Part shown: positions 2,649 through 60,240 of the stretch, in pieces
How the letters are laid out: every line of letters starts with the position of its first letter
How positions within the stretch are numbered: the first letter of the stretch is position 1
Assembly: GCA_003022365.1 (NCBI GenBank)
Contig: PXOU01000018.1
Span: 11,900-75,899 of the forward strand
Direction: 5' to 3'
Length of the DNA stretch: 64,000 nucleotides
Origin: Candidatus Saccharibacteria bacterium QS_5_54_17
Lineage (GTDB): Bacteria > Patescibacteriota > Saccharimonadia > QS-5-54-17
Position numbers and translations under genes: made by a program
The notes under the pieces: model-generated
The model's input: the letters and a program-made list of their open reading frames with translations, nothing else
What the model was told of the DNA's origin: nothing
Databases searched by the model: none

Positions 2649-3170
2649 CCCACAGGAATAAGAAGTAAGCAGTAAGAAGCAAGAAGTAAGTTTCGGAATC
2701 GGTTCTGAAATAGATCCTGAAACTGATCCCGGATCGGGGTCCGGGATGACATCTTCAGGATGATGGTTATTTTTCGTCACCTTCTTTGTCATTCCGGCCA
2801 CCGAGCCGGAATCCATGAACCCGATATGATCCAGAAACAGATTCTGAAACAAGCCTGCCTACCGGCAAGGCAGGTTCAGGATGACATTTCTTTTTCGCCA
2901 CCCTCTCTGTCATTCCGAACTTGGTTCGGAATCTCATTCTGCAACAGAGAAACAGATCCCGGATCGGAGTCCGGGATGACATCTTCAGGTTCAGGATGAC
3001 GCCTTTAGAGCCCGTCCTGAACTTGTTTCAGGGATGACAATTCAGGAATGATGTTCAGCCCGGTTTTTGTTGCCGGGTTTTGATAATGATTCCGGGTGCT
3101 CGCGCACAAACACCTCCTTGTTGTTTACTGCATCCGAGGTGTTCGATATGTCGTGTCACTATACGCAAGT
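2649..3170. repeat. Mosaic intergenic repeat array; the last ~110 bp (3055-3166) is a module also found at 22040-22164
   Basis: Sequence identity to other arrays. Confidence 0.8.
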
Positions 3171-3207
3171 TTTGAAGAGTATACCTTGGTGTGCCATTAT
3201 TATTGCA

Positions 3208-3987
3208 ATGACCAATGTTTTTGATCTCAAACAATTTGCAAACGAAAAAGGTTTAGAATTGCCTCACCAGAGTGCAATTCTTGAAGAAGCAACAGAAAAC
3301 ATAGTTTCCAAATATTCACATGATAAAGAACAGATAAAAGACAACTTCGATTCTATGATTTTTGAAACGGAAAAAGAGGCGTACAACGTATATCTTAAGC
3401 ACGAGCAACAGTACGGCGAAAGAGTATTCAACGCTTTCTTCGAATACCTGCAAGAAAATAAAGAAATTAATGCTATCAATGAAGCCGGATCTGTTCTCGG
3501 AAGTTATTTTTACTCACTCGATAGGTTTTTTCTCTCACTAAAGCAGTCACGAACTGTGAGGGCAGGGAAAACATTCGAAGGCATCACGAGGAATCTCTTC
3601 AAAATTCTCGATTATCCTTTCGAAGAACAAGTTACGATTGATGGAGGCAATACCCCGGATTTTCTCATGCCTTCAGCTGAGCATTATGAAGCCAATGCAC
3701 CAGATTGCATCATTTTTACATCGAAACGTACTTTACGCGAACGATGGCGCCAGATTGTGACAGAAGGAACAAGGGGTCTTGGTTTCTATCTCGCGACCAT
3801 GGACGAAGGAATATCCAAGGCTCAATTGAATGAAATGCAGCATAACAGGATATTCGTTGTGGTACCCGAACAAATAAAAACAAAAAAATATTCAGAAACC
3901 GTCAATGTTCTCAGCTTCACCCGATTTTTTAATGACTATCTCGATCCTGCAGTTGAAAGATGGCGACGGAACGGAGTTATCAGTTGA
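3208..3987 (+). CDS. Putative type II restriction endonuclease (family not recognised)
   Basis: AT-rich ORF directly upstream of a C5-MTase and vsr. No recognisable conserved domain by eye. An alternative start is ATG 3148 (GAGGT SD, inside the repeat module). Confidence 0.45.
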   Translation: MTNVFDLKQFANEKGLELPHQSAILEEATENIVSKYSHDKEQIKDNFDSMIFETEKEAYNVYLKHEQQYGERVFNAFFEYLQENKEINAINEAGSVLGSYFYSLDRFFLSLKQSRTVRAGKTFEGITRNLFKILDYPFEEQVTIDGGNTPDFLMPSAEHYEANAPDCIIFTSKRTLRERWRQIVTEGTRGLGFYLATMDEGISKAQLNEMQHNRIFVVVPEQIKTKKYSETVNVLSFTRFFNDYLDPAVERWRRNGVIS

Positions 3988-4073
3988 ATGACCGTTGTTA
4001 CTTCCGAGAAGTTGCAATACGAACAAAAAACGAATATCATAAAAGCATAAGCATATAAATAAGGAGAGCTTTT

Positions 4074-5228
4074 GTGGTTATGGATAATAGGCTAAGATTA
4101 AATCAGCTAAGTTTTTGGGAGAAAAGGGAGGTGCGGTCAGTGATTCCAGCAAAGAATAGTGTAAAAGGATATCGATTTATAGATTTATTCGCAGGAATCG
4201 GTGGAATCAGGTCCGCTTTCGAGAATTCTGGTAATACATGTGTTTTTTCTTCCGAGTGGGACAAGCACTGCCAAGCTACTTACAAGGCAAATTTCGGAGA
4301 AAAGCCCTATGGGGACATAACAAAAATCAATGAGAAGGATATTCCGGATCATGACATACTATTAGCCGGTTTTCCGTGCCAACCTTTTTCAGTGGCCGGT
4401 GTGTCCAAAAAACTCAGCTTGAAGCGCCAACATGGCTTTGCGGACGAAGAGCAGGGAAATCTGTTTTTTGATATAGCTCGTATAATTGCAGAGAAAAGAC
4501 CAACTGCTTTCATGCTTGAAAATGTTAAAAATCTTAAAAGCCATGATGGCGGCAAAACGTTTGAAGTTATTCGCAATACTCTGGAAGATCTGGGATACAG
4601 CGTGCACGAAAAAGTCATTGATGCGATTGATTATGTCCCCCAGCACAGGGAAAGAATTTTCATAGTAGGGTTCGATAAAAAGAAAGCCGGAGATATCAAT
4701 TTCAATTTTCCCCAACCGCCGCGCACAAAAAATGCGATTGCCGATATACTCGAAAAAGATGCTGATGAAAAACACACACTTTCAGATAAGCTTTGGAATT
4801 ATCTGCAGGGTTATGCTGATATTCATAAAGAAAAAGGTAACGGTTTTGGGTTCGGTCTTATTGATCCCGAAACTGATACAGCAACACGCACACTCAGTGC
4901 ACGATATTACAAGGATGGATCAGAAATTCTCATAAAACAGGCTGATAATAACCCTCGAAAACTTACGCCACGGGAGTGCGCCAGACTGATGGGGTTTGAT
5001 GATTCATTTCAAATTCCTGTTTCAGATACACAAGCTTACAAACAGTTCGGTAATTCAGTAGTGGTTCCTGTAGTTGGCGCAGTTGCCTCGCAGCTGGTTC
5101 ATGCGCTAGATTCAGTATATGGACGGACTGTCGAGAGAAGCCCGAAGCAGAAACATGTCAAAAATCGGGGCAAAAAACACAAAACCCGAGTTACTGGTAC
5201 GGAAATTCCTGCACAACAAGGGTTATAG
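4074..5228 (+). CDS. DNA (cytosine-5)-methyltransferase, HpaII/MspI-like
   Basis: C5-MTase motifs: FAGIGG (I), PCQPFS (IV), ENV (VI), QFGNSV (VIII). FSSEWD, RERIFIVGF and KGNGFGF resemble M.HpaII from memory. AGGAG SD before GTG 4074. Confidence 0.9.
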   Translation: MVMDNRLRLNQLSFWEKREVRSVIPAKNSVKGYRFIDLFAGIGGIRSAFENSGNTCVFSSEWDKHCQATYKANFGEKPYGDITKINEKDIPDHDILLAGFPCQPFSVAGVSKKLSLKRQHGFADEEQGNLFFDIARIIAEKRPTAFMLENVKNLKSHDGGKTFEVIRNTLEDLGYSVHEKVIDAIDYVPQHRERIFIVGFDKKKAGDINFNFPQPPRTKNAIADILEKDADEKHTLSDKLWNYLQGYADIHKEKGNGFGFGLIDPETDTATRTLSARYYKDGSEILIKQADNNPRKLTPRECARLMGFDDSFQIPVSDTQAYKQFGNSVVVPVVGAVASQLVHALDSVYGRTVERSPKQKHVKNRGKKHKTRVTGTEIPAQQGL

Positions 5229-5676: not shown

Positions 5677-8343
5677 GTGAACGTACAGCAATTTTTAACC
5701 CGGATTTTCGGCGACGCGGCCCAGCAGCAACTGAAGAAACTGTGGCCGTTGGTCCATGCCATCAACGACCACGAGGCGTCAGTCGCCCAATTAAGTGACG
5801 AGGAGCTGGCCGCCAAAACCGACCAATTCAAAACGGCGTTGGCGGAAGAATCCCAGACCCTGGACGGTTTATTACCCGAAGCCTTCGCGGTGGTGCGGGA
5901 GACCGCCAAGCGCACGCTGAGGCAACGGCATTTCGACGTGCAGCTGCTGGGCGGGATCGTCATGCACCAGGGCAACATCGCCGAGATGAAAACCGGTGAA
6001 GGTAAAACCCTGGTGGCCACCCTCCCGCTGTATCTGAACGCTCTGGAGGGCAAGGGTGCCCACATCGTGACGGTCAACGATTACCTGGCCCGCCGTGACG
6101 CCGGCTGGATGGGGCAGGTGTATCATTTCCTGGGGCTGTCGGTGGGGTCGATCGTCCACGGCAACCAGGCCTACATCTATGACCCCGACGTTACCGATGA
6201 AACCCACTCCGACCCGCGCCTGCAGCATTTCCGCAGCGCTACCAAGGCCGAAGTCTATAATTGCGACATCGTCTACGGCACCAACAACGAATTCGGTTTC
6301 GATTACCTGCGGGACAACATGGCCAACACTAAAGACGACATCGTCCAGCAAGAGCTGAATTTCGCCATCGTCGACGAAGTGGACTCCATCCTCATCGACG
6401 AAGCCCGGACGCCGTTGATCATCTCCGCTCCGGGCGATAAACAGGTCACCACTTACCAGCAGTTCGCCCGGCTGGCGGGCCAACTCTCCCGTGAGGAAGA
6501 TTACACGGTGGATGAAAAACAACGGGCCGTATCCTTAACCGAAGACGGCGTCAACAAGGTCGAGCAGACGTTAGGCATCGACAACCTCTACGACTCCGAG
6601 CACGTCCAGTCCATATTCCACCTGGAGCAAGCACTGAAAGCCAAGGCGCTCTTCATTAATAACAAGAATTACGTGGTCCGGGATGGGGAAGTTATCATCG
6701 TCGACGAATTCACCGGCCGACTGATGCCCGGCCGGCGCTTCAGCGAAGGCATCCACCAGGCCATCGAAGCCAAGGAGGGCGTCCCGGTATTGCAGGAGTC
6801 AACCACCCTGGCGACCATTAGCTTCCAGAACTATTTCCGTTTGTACGACAAACTGGCCGGCATGACCGGTACCGCCAAGACCGAGGAAGAGGAATTCCAG
6901 AACATCTACAATTTGGACGTGGCCATTATTCCCACCAACGAGCCAATTATCCGCCAGGATCTCTCGGACCGGATTTACAAGACTGAGCACGGCAAATTCG
7001 AGTCCGTGGCTGATGACGTGGCGGAGCGGTATGAGAAGGGGCAGCCGGTGTTGCTGGGCACGGTATCGATTGAGAAAAACGAGCAACTCAGCAGCATGCT
7101 GGAGGACCGCGGTATTCCCCATGAAGTGCTGAATGCCAAAAACAACGAACGGGAAGCCGAGATCATTGCCCGGGCCGGTCGGGAAGGGGCAGTAACCCTG
7201 GCCACCAACATCGCCGGGCGGGGGACCGACATCGTCCTGGGCGGCGACCCCGATGACGCCGCCACTCGTGAGGAGTGGCAGCGGGCCCATGATCGGGTGG
7301 TGGAGCTGGGCGGGCTGCACGTGCTCGGCAGCGAACGCCACGAAGCCCGCCGGATCGACAATCAGCTCCGCGGCCGTTCCGGGCGGCAGGGCGACCCGGG
7401 AAGCACCCAGTTCTACGTCAGCCTGGAAGATGATCTGATGCGCGTGTTCGGCGGTGAACGGATGAGCGGCTTGATGAATTCGGTCGGCGTGGACGAGAAG
7501 ACGCCCATCGAGAGCAAAATGGTGTCCCGGAGTCTGGAGAGTGCCCAGAAGCGGGTGGAATCCCATAACTACGACCAGCGCAAAAACGTACTCCAATACG
7601 ACGACGTCATGAACCGCCACCGGGAAGCCATTTATGCCCGGCGGCGGGAAATTTTGGAAGAAAAACCGCTCAAAGAGGAAATTCTGGGAATGGTGGAAAC
7701 CCAGATCCAACATTTGATTTACTCCCACACTTCCGATGAGACCAACCGACTGGACCGGGCTGAGCTGTGGGAAGGGCTGGAAAGCTTCCTCTCGCTTGAT
7801 TATGAACGCCTGGAGCATGTCGCCGACGCCGAGTTACCCGGGGAGCTGATGGAACAGGCCCGGGAACTGTATGCGCAGCGGGAGCAGGAGTTTGGCTCGG
7901 AGGTCACCCGCCAGCTGGAGCGGCAGGTGTATCTGCAGGCGCTGGACCGGTTATGGATGGAGCATTTAGAAAGCATGGACCATTTGCGCGAGGGCATCCA
8001 CCTGAGGAGCGTGGGCCAGAAAGACCCGCTGGTGGAGTACAAAAAGGAAGCCCACACCATGTTTAATCAGCTGATGAGCAGCATCGACCGGGAAGTCGCC
8101 ACCACTATTTTCCGGCTGGTTCCTACCGAACAGATGACCGAAACCGAAACCGAGCTGACCCGGGCGGCCGAAAATGCCCAAGCGGAAGGCGGCAACACCT
8201 CAGATCAGTCCCAAGGCACGGTCCGCAAATCGCCAGCCGAGAAAATCGGCCGGAACAGCTTATGCCCCTGTGGTTCCGGGTTGAAATACAAGAAATGTGG
8301 CTTGATTGACGCGCCCCAACACCAAGCGGCTGCCGCTGAGTAA
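5677..8343 (+). CDS. secA: Preprotein translocase ATPase SecA
   Basis: DEAD-like motor motifs. C-terminal Zn finger CPCGSGLKYKKCG. GTG start with GGAAG SD. Confidence 0.95.
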   Translation: MNVQQFLTRIFGDAAQQQLKKLWPLVHAINDHEASVAQLSDEELAAKTDQFKTALAEESQTLDGLLPEAFAVVRETAKRTLRQRHFDVQLLGGIVMHQGNIAEMKTGEGKTLVATLPLYLNALEGKGAHIVTVNDYLARRDAGWMGQVYHFLGLSVGSIVHGNQAYIYDPDVTDETHSDPRLQHFRSATKAEVYNCDIVYGTNNEFGFDYLRDNMANTKDDIVQQELNFAIVDEVDSILIDEARTPLIISAPGDKQVTTYQQFARLAGQLSREEDYTVDEKQRAVSLTEDGVNKVEQTLGIDNLYDSEHVQSIFHLEQALKAKALFINNKNYVVRDGEVIIVDEFTGRLMPGRRFSEGIHQAIEAKEGVPVLQESTTLATISFQNYFRLYDKLAGMTGTAKTEEEEFQNIYNLDVAIIPTNEPIIRQDLSDRIYKTEHGKFESVADDVAERYEKGQPVLLGTVSIEKNEQLSSMLEDRGIPHEVLNAKNNEREAEIIARAGREGAVTLATNIAGRGTDIVLGGDPDDAATREEWQRAHDRVVELGGLHVLGSERHEARRIDNQLRGRSGRQGDPGSTQFYVSLEDDLMRVFGGERMSGLMNSVGVDEKTPIESKMVSRSLESAQKRVESHNYDQRKNVLQYDDVMNRHREAIYARRREILEEKPLKEEILGMVETQIQHLIYSHTSDETNRLDRAELWEGLESFLSLDYERLEHVADAELPGELMEQARELYAQREQEFGSEVTRQLERQVYLQALDRLWMEHLESMDHLREGIHLRSVGQKDPLVEYKKEAHTMFNQLMSSIDREVATTIFRLVPTEQMTETETELTRAAENAQAEGGNTSDQSQGTVRKSPAEKIGRNSLCPCGSGLKYKKCGLIDAPQHQAAAAE

Positions 8344-11497: not shown

Positions 11498-12304
11498 GTG
11501 CGGTTCAATGTAGGCTCCCTTTCCACGGCCAAAGACGGGTCCCGGACCAACGAAGACACCGTATTGGTCTGGGAAGAGGCGGGGCTGTTCGGGGTGTTCG
11601 ACGGCATCGGCGGCGGTGGTGACGGCGACGTGGCCAGCTCGGTGGCTGCCCAGGCGGTGACGTCCTTTTACGCCCGTGAGTCGGGCGAGGTGGCGGCGGA
11701 CTCCTCCCAAGCTGACGGCCTGGCTCGCCAGGCGCTGGTGGAAGCCGGGCGGGCGCTGGCTCGGCGAGCAGCCCAAGCGCCATCGGTGAGTGCCGAGATG
11801 GGTACCACCGCCACCATCGGCTGTGTGCATCACGAAGAAGACGGTTTTGGCTTAACCTACGCGCATGTGGGGGATTCCGGGCTACTCGTCTACCGGCGCG
11901 ACCAGGATCACCTGACTTTCCTTACCGAAGATGAAGCCCAGGAGAATGTACTGGACAACGCCCTGACTGCCCGGGAGGAGGTGCTCCACGGTGTGCGCCA
12001 ATACGCTCGCGTAACGCTCCAGCCGGGCGACCGGCTGGTCTTTTTCACTGACGGCATCAGCGGCGACACTCCTGACCAACGGCTCAGCCGGGCGGAATAC
12101 CGGCAGGCGATCGTCGGGGTGTCGCCGCAGCAGGCGGCCCGGGCGTTGTCGGAGACCAGCCGCAAATCTGACGACACCTCGGTTGTGGTGGTGGATCCGC
12201 TGGTGGATGAGGCGAACAGGAAGCAGGAAGTAAGAAGCAAGCGGGAGACGGGGAGTAGACAGCAGACGGTAGACAGTAGACAGGGAACGGGGAACAGGGA
12301 GTAA
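11498..12304 (+). CDS. PP2C-family Ser/Thr protein phosphatase
   Basis: FDGIGGGGDGD metal-binding motif. GTG start with GGAGG SD. The last ~25 codons are translated from the AG-rich repeat module. Confidence 0.85.
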   Translation: MRFNVGSLSTAKDGSRTNEDTVLVWEEAGLFGVFDGIGGGGDGDVASSVAAQAVTSFYARESGEVAADSSQADGLARQALVEAGRALARRAAQAPSVSAEMGTTATIGCVHHEEDGFGLTYAHVGDSGLLVYRRDQDHLTFLTEDEAQENVLDNALTAREEVLHGVRQYARVTLQPGDRLVFFTDGISGDTPDQRLSRAEYRQAIVGVSPQQAARALSETSRKSDDTSVVVVDPLVDEANRKQEVRSKRETGSRQQTVDSRQGTGNRE

Positions 12305-12500
12305 GGAGTAAGAAGCAAGAAGCAAGTGAAAAAATGCAAAACCTCTATGTCATTCCGAGCCTCCTCCGTCATTCTGAACTTGTTTCAGAATCAGCATTGA
12401 AATAGATCCTGAAATAAATTCAGGATGACAATAGGGGAGGATCCTGAAATAAATTCAGGATGACATCTTCAGGAATGACATCTTTAGGAATGATACTTCG
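12305..12500. repeat. Mosaic intergenic repeat array
   Basis: AAAATGCAAAACCTCT-TGTCATTCC module plus TCCTGAA hairpins. Confidence 0.8.
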
Positions 12501-12539
12501 TCCGCGCATTGACACATCCTCATCAACATGCGTATTTAA

Positions 12540-12568
12540 TTGACAAATCATAAAAATTTTGCTAGAGT
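12540..12568 (+). promoter_or_regulatory. Sigma70-type promoter TTGACA-N17-TAGAGT
   Basis: Exact 17-nt spacing. About 90 nt upstream of ATG 12657. Confidence 0.55.
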
Positions 12569-12656
12569 ATTTTTAGCCTAGTCCCGGTATTCCCCGGGCC
12601 TATGCGCCCACATCAGCCTTTATTAATTTTATACAAACTCCCAAGAGGTATATCAG

Positions 12657-14309
12657 ATGGCACAAGAAACACCCGAATTCGATCCCAATCAGGAAGCGGT
12701 CCAGGACCCGGCGTCCGGGGAGCCAGCGGAAACGGAATCGAATAATGAGGGAAAACCGGATGAGAACCGGCAACCGGAGGACGCCCGGGACTCGAATGAC
12801 GAAAAGGAATCGGCAGAGTCGGAAGTAGAAACGCCGGAATCCGGCAATGAGCACTTTCGGGGTTTGCGGGGTTCGCTCCAGCGCGGCAGGCGCGCCAGGC
12901 GCGGCAAATCCCATGCATCAGCGGAAAACCAAGACGGGGAAGCCGGAGCGGAAGCTTCCGGAAACGAACCGGAGGAACCGGATGATGCGGGAGAACCGGA
13001 TGAGGACCCACAACCGGAGGATGAGCAGGATTCAGATGACAAGGAGGGATCGGAACCAAATCAAGATCCGTACGTAATCAGTGCAGTAGCGGGAGCGCCC
13101 GGCGACGGTGAAGCGGTCCAGCAACCGGACGCTACCGGGGCGGAAGTGAATGATGCCGCCGGCGAAGCACAGCAGAATCAAGATCAGCAGGAACAGAATC
13201 AAAATCAGGCGGAACTGAGCCAAGCGGACCGCAATCGCCGCGACTTCCTCCGCCAGATGAAGGACACATCCAAGGAAGCCGTCCTGGGGGCAACGACGAA
13301 AGCCCAGATGTGGTGGCAGCGAGACCCGGAAAAACCTGGTAAGGCCAAATACGGTGTCGTCCTCGGGGCGATCGCCGTCACCGCCACCTCCAAGTACCTT
13401 CCTGAGGCAATCGACTCTATACAAGGCGGGGAGGCAACCGCCGGTTCGCCGGTAGGAGAGAGCGGCGGCACCCCGGTGAACCCCGCCGAGTCCGCGCCCG
13501 AGGCGGCTCCCTATGCCGCTGGCGGCCAAGTCGAGGGGACGCTCGAAAAAGTAGCCCCAGAGGCCCAGGCTCGTTTCGGCGAACTGGCCGGTGATCGGGT
13601 GGACATTACTATACCCAAGGGCAGTAACGTCTGGGATCAACTGGAACTGGCGGTTGACCAGCGGGCCGATGTGAGCTTTGAACGCAAGCAGGAGATAGTC
13701 GATGCCATGGTTGATCAGATGCGAGTCGAGTACCCGGGGCAGGATCTGAGCCACGTACACCCCGGTGATTCTTTCAGTGTCGAGCTGCCGGGTGGGGAGG
13801 CAACGGCCGACTCGTCATCGGTAGGAGAGAGCAGTAGCGCGCCGGTGGACTCTGCCGAATCCGCGTCTGATGCGGCTTCCGAAACTGCTGGGGGTCAAGC
13901 TAGCGAAACGGCCTCGATCGAGACCACTCCCGGCACTGCTGGAGGCCAAGCTGGCGAAACGGCCTCGCTGGATACTGCTCCCGACGCCGCAGAAGGCCAA
14001 GCCGGCCACACGACCGCGTCCGAAGCCATTGGAAGCCAGGTCGCCCAAACGGCCGGGGAAGTATCCCCGGAAGCTCAGGCTCGCTTCGGTGAACTGGCCG
14101 GTGAACGGGTGGATATCACCATCCCCGAGGACAGTAATCTGCGGGATCAACTGGAAATGGCGGTCGACCAGCGCACCGGCGTGGTGGACTTTGCCCGCAA
14201 GCAGGAAATAGTGGACGCCATGGTCGATCAGCTTCGAACCGAATACCCCAGCCAGAATCTGGACTACGCCCACACCGGCGATTCCTTCAGCATCCACCTG
14301 CCCGCCTAA
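12657..14309 (+). CDS. Hypothetical acidic low-complexity protein with two ~85-aa C-terminal repeats (AQARFGELAG…VDAMVDQ…)
   Basis: AAGAGG SD. Long ORF with an internal duplicated domain and one hydrophobic segment. Confidence 0.6.
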   Translation: MAQETPEFDPNQEAVQDPASGEPAETESNNEGKPDENRQPEDARDSNDEKESAESEVETPESGNEHFRGLRGSLQRGRRARRGKSHASAENQDGEAGAEASGNEPEEPDDAGEPDEDPQPEDEQDSDDKEGSEPNQDPYVISAVAGAPGDGEAVQQPDATGAEVNDAAGEAQQNQDQQEQNQNQAELSQADRNRRDFLRQMKDTSKEAVLGATTKAQMWWQRDPEKPGKAKYGVVLGAIAVTATSKYLPEAIDSIQGGEATAGSPVGESGGTPVNPAESAPEAAPYAAGGQVEGTLEKVAPEAQARFGELAGDRVDITIPKGSNVWDQLELAVDQRADVSFERKQEIVDAMVDQMRVEYPGQDLSHVHPGDSFSVELPGGEATADSSSVGESSSAPVDSAESASDAASETAGGQASETASIETTPGTAGGQAGETASLDTAPDAAEGQAGHTTASEAIGSQVAQTAGEVSPEAQARFGELAGERVDITIPEDSNLRDQLEMAVDQRTGVVDFARKQEIVDAMVDQLRTEYPSQNLDYAHTGDSFSIHLPA

Positions 14310-14560
14310 TGCAGGAGACAAGGAACAAGGAACAGGGAGCAAGGAGCAAGGAGCAAGGAACAAGGAGTAAATGGAGAAATACAAACCCTCTCTGTCATTC
14401 CGAGCCCCCTCCGTCATTCTGAACTTGTTTCAGAATCAGCATTGAAATAGATCCTGAAATAAATTCAGGATGACATCTTCAGAGCCTGTCCTGAACTTGT
14501 TTCAGGAATGACATCTTCAGAGTCTGTTGCCCTTCACTCCCTGTCTCCTGTCTACTGATT
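14310..14560. repeat. Mosaic intergenic repeat array
   Basis: The (CAAGGAG)n trailer directly follows the stop codon. Confidence 0.8.
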
Positions 14561-14608
14561 CAATAGCCACAACTGCTTTGACACAATCTATAGTATATTT
14601 CTAAATGA

Positions 14609-14637
14609 TTGACACTAGAACAAAAAAATGGTAGTGT
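14609..14637 (+). promoter_or_regulatory. Sigma70-type promoter TTGACA-N17-TAGTGT
   Basis: Same architecture as the promoter at 12540. Confidence 0.45.
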
Positions 14638-14643
14638 AAAAAC

Positions 14644-14795
14644 ATCTGATTGGTGTGGGGTGGAAATCACGCCGATGGCCGGTCCGGAACCGGGCCATCT
14701 GAGGTGAGGGACCCGGGCCAATACGGGGTGCCTTGACAAGCCGCGTACGTGCATTCGAGATGCACGCCGCGTCTTTGCCCGCCCGGGCAAGGACG
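14644..14795 (+). promoter_or_regulatory. Structured GC-rich leader RNA; candidate riboswitch (ydaO/c-di-AMP-like motifs GGGGTGGAAATC, CCGGAACCG, GGGACCCG, ACGGGGTGCC)
   Basis: Nested hairpins GATGGCC…GGCCATC. Sits between the promoter and the terminator, 170 nt upstream of the CDS. Confidence 0.4.
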
Positions 14796-14802
14796 TTTTT
14801 TT
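14770..14802 (+). terminator. Intrinsic terminator (12-bp stem CGTCTTTGCCCG/CGGGCAAGGACG plus T7)
   Basis: Perfect GC-rich hairpin followed by TTTTTTT. Confidence 0.7.
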
Positions 14803-14968
14803 ATGTGTTCGAAATACCAGAGAGATCGATTACCAACCACGCTTGTCACGTGCTCGCCCTGACCCAAGGGAAAACTCACCGGCGGGGAGCATGGTGCTCC
14901 GCACTCGAGCGGGGCAGCCTGCTCCCTGCCCGGGGAGTGCAGCTAGCCTCTAAAGGAGGTGAAAGCGG

Positions 14969-17041
14969 ATGGACTATGTTATTTGGTTCATCCTGCTGCT
15001 GGCTTTACTCCTCTTCGCTGGGAAGGACTACGTCCTTCCCTGGTGGAGGCGCCGGCAGCAGAGCTCGGACTCCTCAGCGAGTCCGAGCAGCTCGGCGGAG
15101 ACGCCGTCGAGCCCAGAACCCGACTCGGACCCCGAATCCGAGTCGGAATCGGAGTCCGAGCCCGAGCAGGACTCGGAGTCGGAGCCCGAAAACGGGCCCG
15201 ACCCGGAGTCGGCGTCTGAAACCGAGCCAGTTCCGGCCCCTGAGCCGGAACCTGAGCTCGATTCCGATTCGGAACCCGAGTCCAAATCGGAGTCCGAGTC
15301 CGAGCAGGACTCGGGGTCCAGCGCCGCCACGGCCAAACGGCCACGGCGACTTACGCGACAGCAGGTCGGAGCCGGCCTGCTGATTGTCGTCCTTGTTCTG
15401 TCATTGGGCGGCAATGTCGTGCTGTATTGGATGGTAGAGGGCCTGAACGATACGGTCGCCTCCATGCAAGAACAGCTCGACGAGCTCCGCGATCAAAATG
15501 ATCGCGGAGGGGAGGTCGCAGATGGCCACGGAAGGCCAGGAGGCGCCGTCGCCACCCAGGACGAGGCGGAAGCCCAAGCGGCATCCGCCGAGCAAGTGGA
15601 GGCCTGCGCCGCGCAAAAGCCGGTGCAGTTCGACGTCCAGCCGAGCGGTCGGTGGGGAGAGCCCGTCGAGGCGGAAACCCACCAGGCCGCCCTTGCGGAG
15701 CTAGAGAAAACGCTCTGTGAGCGTCCAGATATTTTGGCCGCTCTCAGTACCGAGTTCGGACTTACCGATGCCGGCTTCGCGGTCGATGAGCAGGTGGCAT
15801 TGGCCACCTCATACATCGACAATCGTGAAAAGTGGCGTCAGGCTGTGGATGAGCTGATGGCTCATATTCACAGCCAGGATGTACGGCTCGGTGTCGAAGA
15901 AGGTCGCTACAAGACCTTCTTCATGGAGGCCACGGAGGGCGTTCCCTGGTTATTCCAGGATGTTCGCACATCCGGGCCTCGAAAGGTCCTCCGCGTGGGT
16001 GATACGGACCTGCAGCTTATTTGCAGGTTCCAACCACGCGAGGCAGCGCCAGCGCCCGCGCCACAGCCGGCTCCCGAGCAGTCGGAGTCGGATCATGTAC
16101 ACCAGCCGTCCGGCGGCGGCCAGGAACGCGTCGTCGAACAGCCAGACGACGTGTCATCTCCTGATGACAACCAGTCATCAGGAGATTCCCCCGACCGTTC
16201 TTCGGATGACGGCCGGTCATCCGACGGCGACGCGGATGAGTTGGTCATCCGCGTCTGCGACATTCGGTTGAAGGAGAAACGGGTTGTGCCGCAAAGTGCG
16301 GCCAACCAGTTTGACCACTTTACCCTCGACTTTTCGAAGTGCGAGGGTGACGACAGCTCCGACGAGTCCTCCGACAGTGAGGACTCCGAGGACTCTTCGG
16401 AGTCCTCCGATGATTCGTCTGACGCGCAAAAGGACCCCAGTGAGGGTCCGATGCGCAACGACGACATCTCCGAGTCCGTCAAAGGACCGGGGACGACCGC
16501 ACCCGGTGGCGATCCGGGGGAGGCCGACGCTCCCGAGGACCATGACCGGTCCCGGGAGGACGTGGCCGACGACGGGTGCGAGGGCGACTGCCCCGCCCCG
16601 GAGTCCAGCCCACAACCGGATTCGGAGCGCACTCCGGAATCCGGCGACCAGCCGCCAGCGGCGGACGAGCCCAGCGGCGGCAACGACCCGGAGGGGAACG
16701 ACCCCGGGTCGTGTGGTGACGGCGCTCGTAGCTGCGGCTATGAGCAGCCTGGCTCGTCGGATGGCACACCCCCTGAGGACGACCAGTCCTCTGGAGGTGG
16801 CCAAAGCGGAGTCGTCGAGCAGCCCGCCGACGACTCTTCCGGAGAGTCTTCCGCTGATGACAGCGGGAACTCGTCCTCCGGCGGCGACTCTGATGACAGC
16901 CAGTCATCCGAGTCGTCCGACAGCGACTCGTCCTCTGACAATGAGGCGTCTAGCGGTTCCTCGGAGGACTCCTCCGAGGTTGGTACCGACTCGAAGGCTG
17001 AGGACGACGACACGAGTCAGCACGTGGATAACTCGTTCTGA
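14969..17041 (+). CDS. Hypothetical membrane protein, extremely Ser/Asp/Glu/Pro-rich and disordered, with 2 TM segments
   Basis: AAAGGAGG SD. N-terminal TM helix and a possible ~130-aa globular core. Confidence 0.55.
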   Translation: MDYVIWFILLLALLLFAGKDYVLPWWRRRQQSSDSSASPSSSAETPSSPEPDSDPESESESESEPEQDSESEPENGPDPESASETEPVPAPEPEPELDSDSEPESKSESESEQDSGSSAATAKRPRRLTRQQVGAGLLIVVLVLSLGGNVVLYWMVEGLNDTVASMQEQLDELRDQNDRGGEVADGHGRPGGAVATQDEAEAQAASAEQVEACAAQKPVQFDVQPSGRWGEPVEAETHQAALAELEKTLCERPDILAALSTEFGLTDAGFAVDEQVALATSYIDNREKWRQAVDELMAHIHSQDVRLGVEEGRYKTFFMEATEGVPWLFQDVRTSGPRKVLRVGDTDLQLICRFQPREAAPAPAPQPAPEQSESDHVHQPSGGGQERVVEQPDDVSSPDDNQSSGDSPDRSSDDGRSSDGDADELVIRVCDIRLKEKRVVPQSAANQFDHFTLDFSKCEGDDSSDESSDSEDSEDSSESSDDSSDAQKDPSEGPMRNDDISESVKGPGTTAPGGDPGEADAPEDHDRSREDVADDGCEGDCPAPESSPQPDSERTPESGDQPPAADEPSGGNDPEGNDPGSCGDGARSCGYEQPGSSDGTPPEDDQSSGGGQSGVVEQPADDSSGESSADDSGNSSSGGDSDDSQSSESSDSDSSSDNEASSGSSEDSSEVGTDSKAEDDDTSQHVDNSF

Positions 17042-17456
17042 CTCGTTCGCTTAAGAGGGGCACTACCATGTAACCGTTTTGCCTCTCTCGAGGCCCCCAT
17101 CCCGGGTACGGGGCGGCGCCGAGGCAAGCGGTTATTGGTAATGCTCTCCCTTTTTGTCGTCTACCTCAGGGTAGACGAATGAGTGTTCGAGCACTAGGAG
17201 GCGCAGAAGCGCGACGTATCGAATGGCTCAGCCATTCCGATTCATTCCGCGGCACGCTGCCCCTCCACTCCTCTCGAATACAGGTACGCGGCTTGAGAGG
17301 CGCCTCCCCAGGCGCACGTTGACAAAACAACCCTCGAGCGCTCCTCAAACACCAGCTCGAGGCTCTTTCGAGCACCAGAAGACGCATACGCATTTGCAAT
17401 TGATGGTAATCCAAACGGTAATCCCATGTAATCCAATAGAAGGAAAGGAGAGATAT

Positions 17457-19136
17457 ATGCGGAATTTAAAAAATTACGCCTCATACATACCCAAGCAGTT
17501 CGTGGTCATGTTGGCGATTATGGCGCTGGTAGCGGCGCCGCTTGGGACCTACGCCAACTGGTCCCCGGAACGGGAGACCTACACCATGGACAACCCGGCC
17601 GAGAAAGTCACCTTCAACTCGATGACCGACAACTCCAACTACGGAGACGAGCGGACCTTTTTCGACGCCAAACCGGCCTCCAACAACAGCGAGGGAGGCT
17701 TTCAGGATGAAATCCAGGTCGGCGATCTGGAAGACGGCCAGGAAGTTACGCTCCGGATGTACGTCCACAACAACGCCAAAGAGGAGTTAAACGAAAGCTC
17801 CAGCGATGACGACAACGTCGGATTCGACGGGGAAGGCATCGCCAAAAATACCCGCGTCAGCGTTATGCTGCCGGAGGACACCACTCGGAGTATGCGATCG
17901 ATCGGCTACGTATCCGCCGATAACGCCGAGCCCGGCCAGGTCAGCGATACGCTGGATCTGAAGTCCAGCGACCGGCCGTTTAACGTGGAATACGTGGACG
18001 GTTCGGCGACGCTGTACAACAACGTCCACGAGAGTGGCATCCAGCTCAGCGACAAGATCGTGACTGATGAGGGTGCCCAAGTCGGCTATGAGCGGATGAA
18101 CGGTAATTATCCCGGTTGCTTCCAGTACGCTTCCATCGTGACCTTAAAAGTCAAGGTCAATAAAGCCGACGTCGGCGTCACCAAACAGGTACGCCAGGCC
18201 GGTGACGAGGACTGGCACAGCGAAATCGAGGCCCAACCCGGCGACAAGCTGGAGTACTTGATCAGCCTGGAGAACACCGGCGATTCCAAGCTGAAAAACG
18301 TGGCCGTGGCTGACAACCTGCCCAAGTACATGTCCTACGTGGAAGGCAGCACCAAGTACGCCAATGGCGCAACCGACGGTGAAAAGACCAATCTGGATAG
18401 CGACAACCTCACCAGAGGCGGGGTCGACCTGGGCAACTACGGCCCCGGCGCCAATGCCTTCGTTAAGTTCCAAGCCCAACTGGATTCGGCCGACAAGTTC
18501 GACAAATGCGGTGAGTACCGACTACGCAACGTCGGCATCGTGCGGCCGTTCCACGAGAGCGACCAGATGAACCAGTTCCTCAATACCGCCGATGTGGTGG
18601 TCAACGTGGAGTGTGAACCCGAACCGGAAGAGCCGGAAGTTTCCTTTAGTTGTCAGGACCTGGAAGCCAGCGACCGGCAGGGGACCGAAAGCCTGGAAAC
18701 TACCTTTACGGCCAAGGCGCAGGTGAACAACACAAGCATCACCGAGTACCAGTGGGACTTCGACGGCGACGGTGAAGTTGACGCCACCACCGACAACAAC
18801 CAGATTACCTACACCTACAACCAGCCGGGTGACTACACCGCCCAGGTAAAGGTGGTTACCGAAGACGGGGAGACCGACTTCATCCAGGATTGCCGGGAAG
18901 CCATCACCGTGCAACCGGCCGAGTCTCAAGAGGACGAAGAGCAAGAGCAGGAAGAACAGCAGCAGCAACAGCAACAACAACAGCAGCAGCAACAACAGCA
19001 AACCTCGGAAGAGCTTCCCAACACCGGCATCGGCAGCACGCTGGCCGGTATCTTCGGCAGCGGCGCCTTGGGCGTCAGCGTCCGGAGCTGGTGGCAGAGC
19101 CGGCGCGGATACTTAGCCAGCTTACTGGGCGAGTAA
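17457..19136 (+). CDS. Cell-surface protein: signal peptide, DUF11-like repeat domain, PKD domain, poly-Gln linker, LPNTG sortase anchor
   Basis: AAGGAGAG SD. PKD motif WDFDGDG. C-terminal LPNTG followed by a hydrophobic stretch and RSWWQSRRG. Confidence 0.8.
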   Translation: MRNLKNYASYIPKQFVVMLAIMALVAAPLGTYANWSPERETYTMDNPAEKVTFNSMTDNSNYGDERTFFDAKPASNNSEGGFQDEIQVGDLEDGQEVTLRMYVHNNAKEELNESSSDDDNVGFDGEGIAKNTRVSVMLPEDTTRSMRSIGYVSADNAEPGQVSDTLDLKSSDRPFNVEYVDGSATLYNNVHESGIQLSDKIVTDEGAQVGYERMNGNYPGCFQYASIVTLKVKVNKADVGVTKQVRQAGDEDWHSEIEAQPGDKLEYLISLENTGDSKLKNVAVADNLPKYMSYVEGSTKYANGATDGEKTNLDSDNLTRGGVDLGNYGPGANAFVKFQAQLDSADKFDKCGEYRLRNVGIVRPFHESDQMNQFLNTADVVVNVECEPEPEEPEVSFSCQDLEASDRQGTESLETTFTAKAQVNNTSITEYQWDFDGDGEVDATTDNNQITYTYNQPGDYTAQVKVVTEDGETDFIQDCREAITVQPAESQEDEEQEQEEQQQQQQQQQQQQQQQTSEELPNTGIGSTLAGIFGSGALGVSVRSWWQSRRGYLASLLGE

Positions 19137-19139
19137 CGC

Positions 19140-19745
19140 GCACCTAACCCGGGGGGTGAGCTTCATCTCTCACCCCTCCGCGCTCCCTGGGGGTACCACA
19201 GGAGTACCCCCAGGTGCCAACCAAGAGGAAGCAAGTGGGGGTCAGTAGACAGCAGACAGTAGACAGGGGAAAAACAACGGGAAGCAAGGAGTAAGAAGTA
19301 AGAAGCAAGTGGCAGTCAGTAGACAGGAGACAGCAGACAGGGGAAAAAGAACGGGAAGTAAGCAGTAAGTAAGAGGCGCGACACACAATTACAAGGAACG
19401 TCCTTGCAATATTAAAAATCACTACCAAAAGCGCTACTTGGCGCAAAATTGCAAGGACGTTCCTTGCAAAAGGAGGGTTTTTTCTCTTTTTGTCACTGGG
19501 AATTTAGTTCGGAATCGTTTCTACAGCAGATCCTGGAATAGATCCTGAAATAAATTCAGGATGACAGTAGGAATAGATCCTGAAACAAGCCTGCCTGCCG
19601 GCAGGCAGGTTCAGGATGACATTTTCCGTTACCCCCCCTCTGTCATTCCGAAGACGTCATCCCGGACCCCGCCTGCACTGAGTAAGGTCGAAGTGATCCG
19701 GGATCAGTTCGGAATCTGATTCCGCAACAGGGGAACGATCACGGA
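19140..19745. repeat. Mosaic intergenic repeat array (two tandem AG-rich trailers, twin-palindrome element 19385-19471)
   Basis: Sequence identity to other arrays. Confidence 0.8.
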
Positions 19746-19788
19746 TCTGGGCGGGGCGACCCCTGTCAATCGCTCTACCTTCAATCAC

Positions 19789-19820
19789 TTGACATTAATC
19801 ATATAAAATGCTACTATAAT
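19789..19820 (+). promoter_or_regulatory. Sigma70-type promoter TTGACA-N17-TACTATAAT
   Basis: Near-consensus promoter about 125 nt upstream of ATG 19945. Confidence 0.55.
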
Positions 19821-19944
19821 GGCACCATATGCATTCCGGGGTGGAGTTTTGCCAAATTGGCAATTCCATACCAAAACAGTTGCCTCATGAGGGCAAAGGA
19901 TTGTATACTAGGGATTGTTAATAAGGAGATTTGGAGGTTTGAGG

Positions 19945-21639
19945 ATGTTATTAAGTGCCTTGCAGCGAAAGAATGTTTTCTTAATCATCGGGGTATTCCT
20001 GCTGAGTATTACCGGTATATTCCAGATGAATTCCGGCCCGACCCATGCCATCCATGGCAACGACGTCATCGACGGCGGGGTCAGCAGCGAACAGGAACTG
20101 CAGCAGATTGTCAGAGACGACAGCAGCGACCCGCATGCCCACCACATATTTAACCAAGCCTTCGGCGGCTATACGACACCTGAGGATATGACCGGCATGC
20201 AAAGGGGTACCCTGCACCGTGACGGCCGGGTGACGGTCAACGGCGAAACGGTGGCCCGGAATGCCGCTACTTCCGGACGAAAACATTTCAGCCAACATGA
20301 CCAGGTCCTGGCCAGGGATAACAACGGAGATCCGATTGCCTATTACGCCCCAGCACCGCACCGTTTCGACGAGGACGCCCAGAGTCCGGAGGTGTTGGTC
20401 AAGCTGGACGAGAACGGCCAGTACCAGCACGCCGTGCTTACCAGCTGCGGCAACCCGGTCATCGCTGACGCCGTCCAACAAGAACCGGAACCTGAGCCGG
20501 AACCGGAAGTTTCCTTTAGCTGTCAGGATCTGGATGCCAACGACAGCTCGGCCGTGGGCACGCTGACCACCACCTTCACCGCCGACGTTGAGGTGAAAAA
20601 CACGGAAGTCACCGAGTACCAATGGGACTTCGACAGCGACGGCAACGTTGACGCCACCAGCCGGGACAACAAGGTGAAACATACCTACCGGGAGCCGGGC
20701 GAATACATCGCCCAGGTGAATGTGGTCACCCAAGACGGGGAAACCGGCTTTACCCCGCGCTGCAAGACGCGGATCACCGTCCAGGAAGAATCCGAACCAG
20801 AACCAGAACCCGAGCCGGAACCGGTAGTTTCCTTTAGCTGTGAAGACCTGGACGCCAGCGACAGCTACGGCCGGGGGAACCTGACCACCACCTTTACCGC
20901 CGACGCCCAGGCCGAAAACACGAACATCACCGAGTACCAATGGGACTTCGACGGCGACCAAAATGTTGATAAAACTACCCAGGACAATCAGGTTACCCAC
21001 ACCTATGAGGAAGTCGGTGAGCACACCGCCGCGGTCAAGGTCGTAACCCAGGACGGGAAGACCGGCTTCAGCAGCCAGTGCCAAACCTCAGTGACCGTCG
21101 ATGAAGCGTCTGAGCCGGAACCCGAAGAAGCTGCCTTCGAATGTGATGGTCTCAGCGTCAGCGACCGCCAGGGGACTGAAAGCCTGGAAACCACCTTCAC
21201 CGCCGACGCCGATACCCAAAACACATCAGTCACCGAGTACCAATGGGACTTCGACGGCGACCAGAATGTCGATGAAACCACCCAGGAAAACCAGATCACC
21301 CACACCTACACCCAGCCGGGCGAGTACACCGCCCAGGTGAACGTGGTCACCGAAGACGGGGAAACCGGCTTCACCGCAGATTGCCGGGAAGCCATCACCG
21401 TCGAAGAAAAACCCGAACCTCAAGAGGACCAACAACAGCAGCAACAGCAACAGCAACAGCAACAACAGCAACAACAACAGCAGCAGCAACAGCAAACTAG
21501 CAAACAACAGCCCGATCAGTTGGCCAATACCGGTCTCGGCAGCGCGGCCATGGGATTGATGGGCAGCGCTTCCCTGGGCGTCGGCCTCCGCAGCTGGTGG
21601 CGCACCAAACGCAACCTGCGCCAGAGCCTGCGCGGATAA
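19945..21639 (+). CDS. Cell-surface protein with 4 tandem PKD domains, (EP)n linkers, a poly-Gln tract and a LANTG sortase-type anchor
   Basis: GGAGG SD before ATG 19945. Signal peptide. Four WDFD(G/S)DG PKD repeats. C-terminal LANTG, hydrophobic stretch and RSWWRTKRN. Confidence 0.8.
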   Translation: MLLSALQRKNVFLIIGVFLLSITGIFQMNSGPTHAIHGNDVIDGGVSSEQELQQIVRDDSSDPHAHHIFNQAFGGYTTPEDMTGMQRGTLHRDGRVTVNGETVARNAATSGRKHFSQHDQVLARDNNGDPIAYYAPAPHRFDEDAQSPEVLVKLDENGQYQHAVLTSCGNPVIADAVQQEPEPEPEPEVSFSCQDLDANDSSAVGTLTTTFTADVEVKNTEVTEYQWDFDSDGNVDATSRDNKVKHTYREPGEYIAQVNVVTQDGETGFTPRCKTRITVQEESEPEPEPEPEPVVSFSCEDLDASDSYGRGNLTTTFTADAQAENTNITEYQWDFDGDQNVDKTTQDNQVTHTYEEVGEHTAAVKVVTQDGKTGFSSQCQTSVTVDEASEPEPEEAAFECDGLSVSDRQGTESLETTFTADADTQNTSVTEYQWDFDGDQNVDETTQENQITHTYTQPGEYTAQVNVVTEDGETGFTADCREAITVEEKPEPQEDQQQQQQQQQQQQQQQQQQQQQQTSKQQPDQLANTGLGSAAMGLMGSASLGVGLRSWWRTKRNLRQSLRG

Positions 21640-21769
21640 GCCGGGCAACTCGAGAAAACAAGACACAGACACCCGGGCCCCATGGGGCCCGGGTAAAAAA
21701 ATTACCAACTTCCGCCGGGCCACGCGGGGTAGAACACGTGAATGAATCCTGCCGCCCCGCTCCCGTGTA

Positions 21770-22170
21770 CCCTCTTTGTCACTGTGAACCTCCTCTGTCA
21801 CTGCGAATTTAGTTCGGAATCGTTTCTGCAACAGTTCCTGAAATAGATCCTGAAACAAGCCTGCCTGCCGGCAGGCAGGTTCAGGATGACACTTCTTTTT
21901 CGTTACCCCCCCCTCTGTCATTCCGAAGACGTCATCCCGGACCCCGATCCGGGATCAGGTTCGGAATCCAATCCTGACACTGGGCCTAAAACTGATCCTG
22001 AAATAAATTCAGGATGACAATTCAGGGGTGACATATTCAGGAATGACATTTAGTCCGGTTTTTGTTGCAGGGTTTTTGATAATAGTTCCGGGTTTTACGC
22101 CCGTGAACACCTCCTTGTTGTTTACTGCATCCGAGGTGTTCAATAAGCCGGGCGACTATACGCCATACTT
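21770..22170. repeat. Mosaic intergenic repeat array ending in a 110-bp module shared with 3055-3166
   Basis: Sequence identity. Confidence 0.8.
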
Positions 22171-22206
22171 AACCGGGTAGCAGTAATCCTTTATACTGCC
22201 CGTGTA

Positions 22207-23301: not shown

Positions 23302-23640
23302 ACAGGGAACAAGGAACAGGGAACAAGGAGCAGGGAGCAAGAAGTAAGTGACACGCAATTGCAAGGAACGTCCTTGCAATATTAAAAATCGTTACCAAAA
23401 GCGCTACTTGGCGCGAAATTGCAAGGACGTTCCTTGCAAAAGGAGGGCCTCCTCTCTTTTTGTCACTGCGAACTTGGTTCGGAATCGTTTCTGCAAAAAA
23501 TCCCGGCATAGATCCTGAAACAAGCCTGCCTGCCGGCAGGCAGGTTCAGGATGACAATAGGGGAAGATCCTGAAACAAGTTCAGGATGACACTTTTCCCC
23601 TCTCTGTCATTCCGGCCGGCGAGCCGGAATCCTTTAACGT
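23302..23640. repeat. Mosaic intergenic repeat array (twin-palindrome element 23355-23441)
   Basis: Sequence identity. Confidence 0.8.
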
Positions 23641-60228: not shown

Positions 60229-60240
60229 CTACCCGTGGTT

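Follow-up and report, generated by a model that had tools for sequence, protein, structure and literature searches.

The window analyzed here, a 64,000-nt stretch of contig PXOU01000018.1 (positions 11,900–75,899) from Candidatus Saccharibacteria bacterium QS_5_54_17, is ordinary chromosomal DNA, and our subject is the structured RNA leader that precedes the gene starting at 14969 on the + strand. The first part of the window encodes FtsA, FtsZ, a restriction-modification pair, SecA, MurD, M16 peptidase, PP2C phosphatase, and a 550-aa acidic protein. After the leader come a 690-aa acidic membrane protein, DUF11/PKD surface proteins, release factor, FtsE/FtsX, and division/cell-wall genes. The leader combines a covarying helix (P1), a near-invariant block resembling the boxA antitermination element, and an intrinsic terminator, and we tentatively read it as an attenuation or antitermination element acting in cis. 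An earlier note on this DNA, made from the sequence alone, had proposed a promoter, nested hairpins, and a terminator here, with a possible riboswitch for cyclic di-AMP.

The leader and its promoter

The features from the promoter to the terminator are as follows.

14578–14583, + strand: second TTGACA box, 31 nt before the main –35 box (from sequence)
14609–14637, + strand: promoter, with –35 box TTGACA (14609–14614), 17-nt spacer, and extended –10 element TGgTAGTGT (TAGTGT, 14632–14637)
14646–14659, + strand: 5′ strand of the P1 helix (CUGAUUGGU-G-UGGG), about 3 nt after the predicted transcription start (from covariation)
14657–14667, + strand: GGGGUGGAAAU, the Shine-Dalgarno-like motif G(A/G)GGUGG, invariant in the family and apical in the P1 domain
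14674–14699, + strand: HP2 hairpin, GAUGGCC...GGCCAUC
14712–14726, + strand: 3′ strand of the P1 helix (CCCG-G-GCCAAU-A-CGG) with a conserved bulge (from covariation, 9–10 members)
14727–14741, + strand: boxA-like block GGUGCCUUGACAAGC, directly abutting P1, near-invariant across 12 members
14748–14766, + strand: core of the P4 hairpin (GUGCAU-UCGAG-AUGCAC, 14749–14765); extended form 14738–14776, –16.7 kcal/mol
14769–14802, + strand: intrinsic terminator with a 12-bp stem (14769–14796), loop GCCC, and U7 (14796–14802), –20.6 kcal/mol

The promoter proposed earlier, TTGACA-N17-TAGTGT, was found in place, and the same architecture (TTGACA-N17-TGnTA(A/G)TGT) was present in 12/12 homologous loci; the promoter segment was 100% identical to that of locus L001 and 90% identical to that of L005. 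A generic promoter scanner misses this promoter because TAGTGT matches TATAAT at 3/6 positions. The form TTGACA-N14-TGnTAnnnT is the organism's own promoter type, with four matches in the window against 0.37 expected. A second TTGACA about 30–35 nt upstream of the main –35 box also occurred in the homologous loci that were read, and this upstream box may be a tandem promoter or a UP-type element. Transcription probably starts at about 14643–14645. Two organism-type promoter matches lie about 90–100 nt upstream of the genes at 12657 and 19915, so the leader of the 14969 gene, at about 325 nt, is unusually long. Between 14640 and 14969, a search limited to the organism's promoter type found neither TTGACA-N17-TAnnnT with at most one mismatch nor an extended –10 element, and within the scope of this search the downstream gene appears to depend on the upstream promoter.

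A narrow family of homologous leaders

As homologues of the downstream gene are confined to its own clade, relatives were sought through the neighboring M16 peptidase, and related genomes were reached via its homologues and their contigs (given L numbers here). Identity of the M16 homologues was graded from 93% down to 44% and then fell to about 32% in mainstream Saccharimonadales. Twelve distinct leader copies were obtained, all downstream of the M16 peptidase gene; with the exception of L024, all clade members with contigs extending that far had the leader at the same syntenic position. Three copies were nhmmer matches (L001, with 95% identity, L005, and L003), and seven came from intergenic reading and a regular-expression scan (L009, L006, L011, L013, L016, L023, L027). 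Among 185,579 species-representative genomes, a pattern scan picked up only the species of L011 (Lejia isolate) and of L009 (CSSed sediment metagenome-assembled genome) together with one chance match, and a pattern scan of JGI metagenomes added L022 and two chance matches. Within the window the leader is present once: a covariance model built from three short forms (described below) gave the copy at 14643–14746 as its sole match in 64 kb (26.5 bits, E about 6e-5). Rfam 15 has no entry for this leader family. These searches indicate that the family is real but narrow, belonging to a small group of salt-loving Saccharibacteria.

Identity to the two loci compared, L001 and L005 respectively, varied by segment.

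Intergenic DNA just upstream of the –35 box: 50% and 49%
Transcription start to terminator: 96% and 75%
Terminator to start codon: 78% and 61%
Downstream gene: 57% and 59%
secA: 94% and 74%

By these comparisons, the leader core of about 160 nt is conserved at the level of secA, and the upstream intergenic DNA at that of unrelated sequence. Since the leader is as conserved as secA and the proteins evolve fast, the control element seems to matter more than the particular protein sequence. The general claim of the earlier note, that the architecture is that of a cis-regulatory attenuator or a small RNA (sRNA), is thus borne out by a promoter, a structured leader, and an intrinsic terminator that are conserved and under selection.

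In L024, a tandem TTGACA promoter arrangement follows the acidic protein gene (5980–6230), but no P1/boxA-like RNA is present there, and a short AT-rich leader precedes the next gene.

The P1 helix and its apical region

The segment 14643–14803 had a minimum free energy (MFE) of –74.6 kcal/mol (z = –2.68 vs shuffles). In the long forms of the leader, RNAalifold paired the 5′ end with the CCCG-G-GCCAAU-A-CGG strand, enclosing the GGUGG motif and HP2, and in the short forms it gave a 5′ hairpin with a bulge at the equivalent place. The long and short forms differ in the apical region, which measures 62–64 nt in the former vs 15–26 nt in the latter. A curated table covering nine P1 pairs across ten members had 84/90 cells paired and double compensatory changes at 5–6 positions. 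On a model-based alignment, which was fitted to the model and held nine sequences only, 93.8% of cells were paired and both sides had changed in 8/13 pairs; none of 500 shuffles reached the observed values, and sliding the partner by 1–3 columns lowered pairing to 25–53%. The covariance model likewise selected the long-range strand as the P1 partner in the window, with an apical-loop insertion of 48–50 nt. The curated and model-based alignments were used in place of a MAFFT alignment of all forms, which mis-registered the P1 3′ strands. We regard the covariation support for P1 as good but not overwhelming. That the RNA comes from the + strand follows from the G-U pairs in P1.

The GGTGG sequence was present in 12/12 members and lay in a loop or internal loop in every fold. 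The nested hairpins reported earlier were both recovered, GATGGCC...GGCCATC at 14674–14699 (HP2) and GTGCATTCGAGATGCAC at 14749–14765 (P4). HP2 is part of an insertion of about 46 nt limited to long-form members; it shows a compensatory change from G-C to A-U between the window and the 95%-identical L001, and in L005 and L003 its sequence is replaced and a hairpin retained.

Three other elements were considered for this region and set aside. A local hairpin pairing 14649–14658 with 14667–14676 is the MFE structure in the window, but it is broken in L005 and L003 and was not chosen by RNAalifold or the covariance model; it is possible as an alternative conformer. Pseudoknot pairing of the GGUGG loop with the linker or the anti-Shine-Dalgarno sequence, sought by eye, was not consistent across members. 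As for a leader peptide, the starts of the tiny open reading frames (ORFs) and their spacing to the Shine-Dalgarno-like motif were inconsistent and the short forms had none, so that these ORFs were judged to be chance. They lie in the long-form insertion (window 14675–14707) and read MAGPEPGHLR* in the window, MPYRPS* in L005, and MPHQPV* in L003. All end at a common UGA (UGA(G/U)GGACCC), and this stop context is conserved though the ORFs are probably chance.

The boxA-like block

The last P1 pair, C14646-G14726, is followed without a gap by the boxA-like block at 14727. The most conserved stretch of the family is UUGACAAGC, and together with the six bases upstream of it the block has the consensus N-G-N-K-C-Y-U-U-G-A-C-A-A-G-C. 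Among the 12 members, G2, U7, U8, A10, C11, and A12 were found in all 12, as was a purine at position 9; C5 was found in 10/12, and Y6 and A13 in 11/12. In E. coli, rrn boxA is UGCUCUUUA(ACAA) (PMC2724277), which we confirmed by reading the rrnH leader. The block shared 8–10 of 13 identities with the E. coli 13-mer UGCUCUUUAACAA, a comparison in which the consensus for this organism's phylum may differ. Critical for boxA function are G2, C5, and the pyrimidine at position 6, and U8 stacks on F122 of NusB (PMC3177189); the block carries the nucleotides critical for recognition by NusB-NusE (G2, C5, Y6, U7, U8, R9). Aquifex boxA deviates at positions 1, 6, and 9 (PMC3177189), and at position 9 the block has G, as in Aquifex. 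The element order in rrn leaders is hairpin, boxA, boxC, of which boxA is the essential part (PMC8632103), and a double-stranded RNA site adjoins the 5′ end of boxA (PMC8632103, PMC3177189). A hairpin likewise lies directly 5′ of the block, in promoter-proximal position and in the same order as in the E. coli rrnH leader.

A relaxed boxA pattern matched once in the window, at the block, where 0.3 matches are expected per 128 kb of shuffled sequence. In 340 kb of Saccharibacteria DNA it matched once per leader, with one coding match and one other site in addition. The block contains TTGACA, and an internal promoter at TTGACAAGC was considered; the TTGACA is not a –35 box, because 11/11 members lacked TAnnnT at N16–18.

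Terminator, competing helices, and distal leader

The 12-bp-stem terminator with T7 was confirmed, and the end of its T-run lies about 165 nt from ATG 14969, the distance given in the earlier note. In every member a strong hairpin stands 25–110 nt after the block. The U-tract that follows is U7 in the window, U6 in L001, and U4–5 in the short forms, with none in L005. Hairpin energies ranged from –21 to –31 kcal/mol in the short forms and from –13 to –31 kcal/mol in the homologues overall.

In folds ending at the terminator 5′ arm, examined for the window, L001, and L005, the first seven bases of that arm, GCGUCUU, paired with AAG-CCGC of the invariant block to give the extended P4. Because these 7 nt are common to both in the long forms, the extended P4 and the terminator would be mutually exclusive. 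In L023 and L011, the pairing is between CUUU in the block and AAAG in the terminator arm. The short forms also contain, after the terminator, a second AAAGCAG copy that can pair with the terminator 3′ arm (–12 to –17 kcal/mol), and a post-terminator hairpin with a conserved GUGUUCG tail was scored as terminator-like by the scanner in L023 and L009. For the short forms, an attenuator chain of four segments (boxA:a, a:b, b:a′, a′:b′) was rejected: the b:a′ and a′:b′ pairings were conserved, but a:b and boxA:a were weak and inconsistent. The modeled folds make a terminator/antiterminator switch plausible, with wiring that is not uniform across members.

Downstream of the terminator, the leader continues to the first gene.

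14805–14813, + strand: GUGUUCGAA, conserved block immediately following the terminator; forms one half of the palindrome GTGTTCGAACAC
14881–14930, + strand: long imperfect hairpin of the distal leader, with 22-nt arms, 82% complementary
14947–14959, + strand: predicted hairpin sequestering the Shine-Dalgarno sequence, CCUCU-AAA-GGAGG
14969–17041, + strand: first gene after the leader, encoding the 690-aa acidic low-complexity protein

The conserved distal features, which reach up to the start codon, are GUGUUCGAA, the long hairpin (with analogous long hairpins at the same place in other leaders), GGGGAGU, and the Shine-Dalgarno hairpin. ATG 14969 is preceded by AAAGGAGGTGA (AAAGGAGGUGA), and in 9/10 full-length leaders the Shine-Dalgarno sequence was paired with an upstream pyrimidine run, by different sequences each time.

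Proposed mechanism and alternatives

These features suggest a cis-acting attenuation or antitermination leader with a nut-like site composed of the P1 hairpin and the boxA-like block, a reading that we hold tentatively and whose chances we judge to be a little short of even. The leader of about 325 nt would be transcribed from the strong extended –10 promoter ahead of a cell-envelope gene, and P1 would present the invariant GGUGG, followed by the block, P4, and the terminator. As in rRNA leaders, the P1 hairpin and the block would together form the nut-like site, at which a NusB/S10-type factor, possibly with a partner reading the GGUGG loop, could bind the nascent RNA. That binding would decide between a stop at the terminator, giving an RNA of about 155 nt, and read-through into the distal leader and the gene; we infer both the binding and the direction of the regulation. 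The switch would lie in the 3′ half of the block, which would serve as the 5′ strand of the extended P4 and so overlap the terminator 5′ arm. Translation could be a second checkpoint, with the Shine-Dalgarno sequence locked in its small hairpin.

Several known systems are comparable. The antitermination site of rrn leaders is boxB hairpin–boxA–boxC, bound by NusB-NusE(S10), NusA, NusG, and SuhB. Like it, the Saccharibacteria site is promoter-proximal behind strong, tandem promoter boxes, the 3′ strand of its hairpin ends at the 5′ edge of a single-stranded block, and that block matches boxA at G2, C5, Y6, U7, U8, R9, A10, C11, A12, and A13. It differs in preceding a protein-coding envelope gene rather than rRNA, in positions 3–4, in having no recognizable boxC, and in possessing an intrinsic terminator, a Shine-Dalgarno-sequestering hairpin, and its own invariant GGUGG in the hairpin. 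A boxA-type element in a protein-gene leader is also found in the suhB-type mRNA 5′ untranslated regions (UTRs) of E. coli and Salmonella (Baniulyte et al., 2017; PMC5725501). In suhB and other mRNA leaders boxA serves gene-specific control rather than rRNA synthesis, and the suhB boxA is situated near the start codon, its effect depending on translation and Rho (PMC5725501), whereas the Saccharibacteria block precedes the start codon by about 230 nt and an intrinsic terminator by about 30 nt. With terminator/antiterminator leaders (riboswitch platforms, RAT/LicT, LoaP) it shares the order promoter, conserved structured RNA, intrinsic terminator, and gene, as well as a conserved sequence in a helix overlapping the terminator 5′ arm; it differs in having no Rfam 15 match and in a competing helix weaker than the terminator.

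A number of observations weigh against the nut-like reading. At equilibrium the terminator beats the extended P4 by about 10 kcal/mol, and the antiterminator pairing is not uniform, with L027, L009, and L006 using another upstream segment (CUGYUUUU). The hairpin of L005 has no U-tract after it. Complexes of the rrn type formed with Nus factors counteract Rho-dependent terminators better than intrinsic ones. The covariation rests on just 9–12 sequences. Positions 3–4 of boxA, CU in E. coli, are UG, CG, GU, or AC in the family. The gamma-proteobacterial consensus GYTCTTTAANA (PMC5725501) was matched at only 7–8 of 10 specified positions. No boxC was found, as there was no conserved GU-rich stretch within about 30 nt 3′ of the block; a GU-rich run, GGUGUGGGG, lies instead upstream, in P1. 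The resemblance could also be partly coincidental, because the block contains TTGACA. Since the likeness to boxA was recognized post hoc and positions 3–4 do not fit, we use "boxA-like" for a leading hypothesis and not for established membership.

The riboswitch named by the earlier note, a divergent ydaO-yuaA (c-di-AMP) riboswitch, can be essentially excluded, having been refuted computationally. In its favor were only the short sequence resemblances named in the note and envelope-related neighboring genes; as with ydaO-yuaA, a structured, GC-rich RNA runs into a terminator ahead of an envelope-related gene. The scan against Rfam 15 (4227 families) that the note had asked for gave no family at its gathering score, ydaO-yuaA included, anywhere in the window or in six homologous loci (111 kb). 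Even permissive scans (E ≤ 10) did not list ydaO, either at 14400–15000 (601 nt), where only meaningless microRNA and long noncoding RNA hairpin matches appeared, or in the short-form homologue L011 (11340–11830, 491 nt). The motifs named in the note belong to other features of the leader: GGGGTGGAAATC is part of the family-specific GGUGG motif, GGGACCCG and ACGGGG are part of the P1 strand pairing, and GGGGTGCC is part of the boxA-like block. The fold supported by covariation is a single P1-closed domain, unlike the large pseudo-two-fold-symmetric ydaO fold of well over 100 nt, and the short forms, with about 45 nt between the transcription start and the block, are far too small to accommodate that aptamer. 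The chance that a ydaO aptamer is present after all is very small. A T-box leader was also rejected: GGGUGGAAC resembles a T-box by eye, but Rfam gave no match, Stem I is missing, and the motif is located within P1, at the 5′ end, instead of in an antiterminator bulge.

The remaining explanations account for parts of the evidence. The element could be a stand-alone trans-acting sRNA of about 155 nt with its own promoter and terminator, in which GGUGG and UUGACAAGC would be seed or protein-binding sites; the strong conserved promoter and U7 terminator suit it, as do the far higher conservation of the start-to-terminator segment than of the remaining leader (96/75% vs 78/61%) and the variation of the first downstream gene between subgroups. 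We nevertheless consider it unlikely, because the gene, with no organism-type promoter between it and the terminator, would be promoterless; conserved blocks and hairpins extend past the terminator to the Shine-Dalgarno sequence in all members, the L005 hairpin has no U-tract, and we saw a single copy and no known target complementarity. Rather less support goes to a new class of metabolite- or ion-sensing riboswitch, with P1 closing an aptamer, GGUGG and the adjoining block forming its pocket, and the terminator serving as expression platform. A P1-closed domain followed by an intrinsic terminator is a classical riboswitch architecture, no known family matches, and the P1 3′ strand in the window is 79% identical to the terminator 3′ arm and so could pair with the 5′ arm; but that complementarity is not kept in L005 or the short forms, the latter leave 15–16 nt inside P1, which is very small for an aptamer, and the apical domain is plastic (15 to 64 nt, with differing hairpins). 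The regulated genes, moreover, encode fast-evolving envelope proteins and not transporters or enzymes. Improbable too is a constitutive 5′ UTR that stabilizes the mRNA and tunes translation of a highly expressed envelope gene, as do leaders of S-layer genes; the 5′-terminal hairpin and the Shine-Dalgarno-like GGUGG would then shield the mRNA, and the terminator would be leaky, with no switch under regulation. P1 starting about 3 nt from the predicted 5′ end, the complementarity of GAGGUGG to the anti-Shine-Dalgarno sequence (noted on inspection), the tandem strong promoter boxes, and the many hairpins are in line with it, yet a U7 terminator in mid-UTR would be costly for a merely stabilizing element, and the invariant 15-nt block and the Shine-Dalgarno-sequestering hairpin argue for control and not for stability alone.

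Our literature search found no native cis-regulatory RNA, leader, or riboswitch described for Saccharibacteria or other Patescibacteria. It is possible, if on balance doubtful, that the leader represents an undescribed RNA family, either rRNA-style boxA/Nus control of surface genes in an ultra-small, host-dependent lineage of the Candidate Phyla Radiation (Patescibacteria), with a lineage-specific GGUGG hairpin that a further partner would read, or an aptamer of a new riboswitch class specific to halophilic Saccharibacteria. The epibiotic lifestyle of these bacteria is mediated by surface proteins. If the boxA reading is true, the leader would let control by Nus factors beyond rRNA be tested directly in a deep-branching lineage, and would provide a natural promoter-leader cassette that could serve the genetic tools being built for Saccharibacteria; if it is wrong, the leader would still be a clean candidate for a new class of structured RNA, with a defined consensus and a covariance model ready.

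Genes and intergenic sequences around the leader

The sole match of the database search with the 690-aa protein (14969–17041) was the protein itself, an identical entry annotated in Candidatus Saccharibacteria bacterium QS_5_54_17 as hypothetical protein BRC19_02620. It has an N-terminal transmembrane helix, a second transmembrane helix, a coiled coil, and a Cys-flanked globular domain. Pfam gave no family for it and was uninformative for the first downstream proteins. The only relatives of its gene are the syntenic first genes of L001 and L005. More generally, the leader is followed by a gene for a transmembrane and coiled-coil protein, and these proteins fall into two sequence families; L006 and L016 have a small acidic protein in first place. 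All loci then share a homologous gene for a DUF11/PKD surface protein, and at least in L009 and L016 this gene has a promoter of its own.

The spacer leading up to the DUF11 gene (window 17042–17460 and its equivalents in L001, L009, and L023) is conserved and structured, with CUCGAGGCCCCCAUCCCGGGUACGGGGC in the window and L001 and related versions in L009 and L023. It contains TTGACAA, which has no –10 element in the window, L001, and L013 and belongs to a normal promoter in L009 and L016. A second boxA at this site was rejected, as in L009 and L016 the TTGACAA is a normal –35 box with TATAAT. The listed ORF start at 17223 (17223–19136) is probably too early; judging from homology with L009 and L016 and a Shine-Dalgarno sequence AAGGAAAGGAGAG, the DUF11/PKD protein, of LPXTG type, most likely starts from ATG 17458 (MRNLKNYASYIPKQ).

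The palindrome GTGTTCGAACAC (GTGTTCGAGCAC in the window), whose half-site GTGTTCGAA stands after the leader terminator, recurs in the spacer that separates the first gene from the DUF11 gene, at window 17183–17194 and in L001 (17434), L009 (14691), and L023 (7298), again a few bases 3′ of a strong hairpin. It looks like a candidate operator-type site common to the surface gene cluster; for GUGUUCGAA itself, an operator-type DNA site and a terminator tail are both candidate roles.

The synteny SecA-(MurD)-M16-(PP2C)-acidic protein is maintained across related contigs. In the mainstream Saccharimonadales genome L015, M16 is followed directly by release factor-FtsE-FtsX (L015 11293–11297), and the leader-bearing block is therefore a clade-specific insertion. 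The insertion comprises the whole block from PP2C to the PKD proteins, leader included (window about 11500–22200), between the M16 peptidase and release factor genes. No Nus factor gene was found within the 64-kb window, and ARAGORN found no tRNA or tmRNA.

The acidic protein upstream of the leader (12657–14309) has two copies of a C-terminal domain of about 85 aa, which is kept at the C-terminus of the corresponding protein in L001, L003, L005, L006, and L009; the L005 and L003 versions also carry a PP2C domain. An arginine-rich patch, RGLRGSLQRGRRARRGK, lies within its otherwise very acidic sequence.

An intergenic palindrome consisting of CCTGCCTGCCGGCAGGCAGG then CTTGTTTCAG is repeated in three copies (19590–19609, 21860–21879, and 23525–23544 on the – strand), with related copies at 14419–14433, 14452–14470, and 14489–14507. 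The CTGAACTTGTTTCAG(GA) hairpins just 5′ of the leader promoter have the CTTGTTTCAG part in common with it. This palindrome may be an element like a repetitive extragenic palindrome (REP) or a miniature inverted-repeat transposable element (MITE).

Between ftsZ and secA, an EcoRII-C-type endonuclease and a C-5 cytosine methylase are encoded (3067–5228) with a GC content of 0.45–0.49 vs about 0.57. Because of this low GC content, and because relatives have no such genes there, the restriction-modification system was probably acquired. At 57511–61260 on the – strand, an ATPase resembling type IV secretion coupling proteins adjoins a protein containing both sigma-70 region 4 and a HARE-HTH domain.

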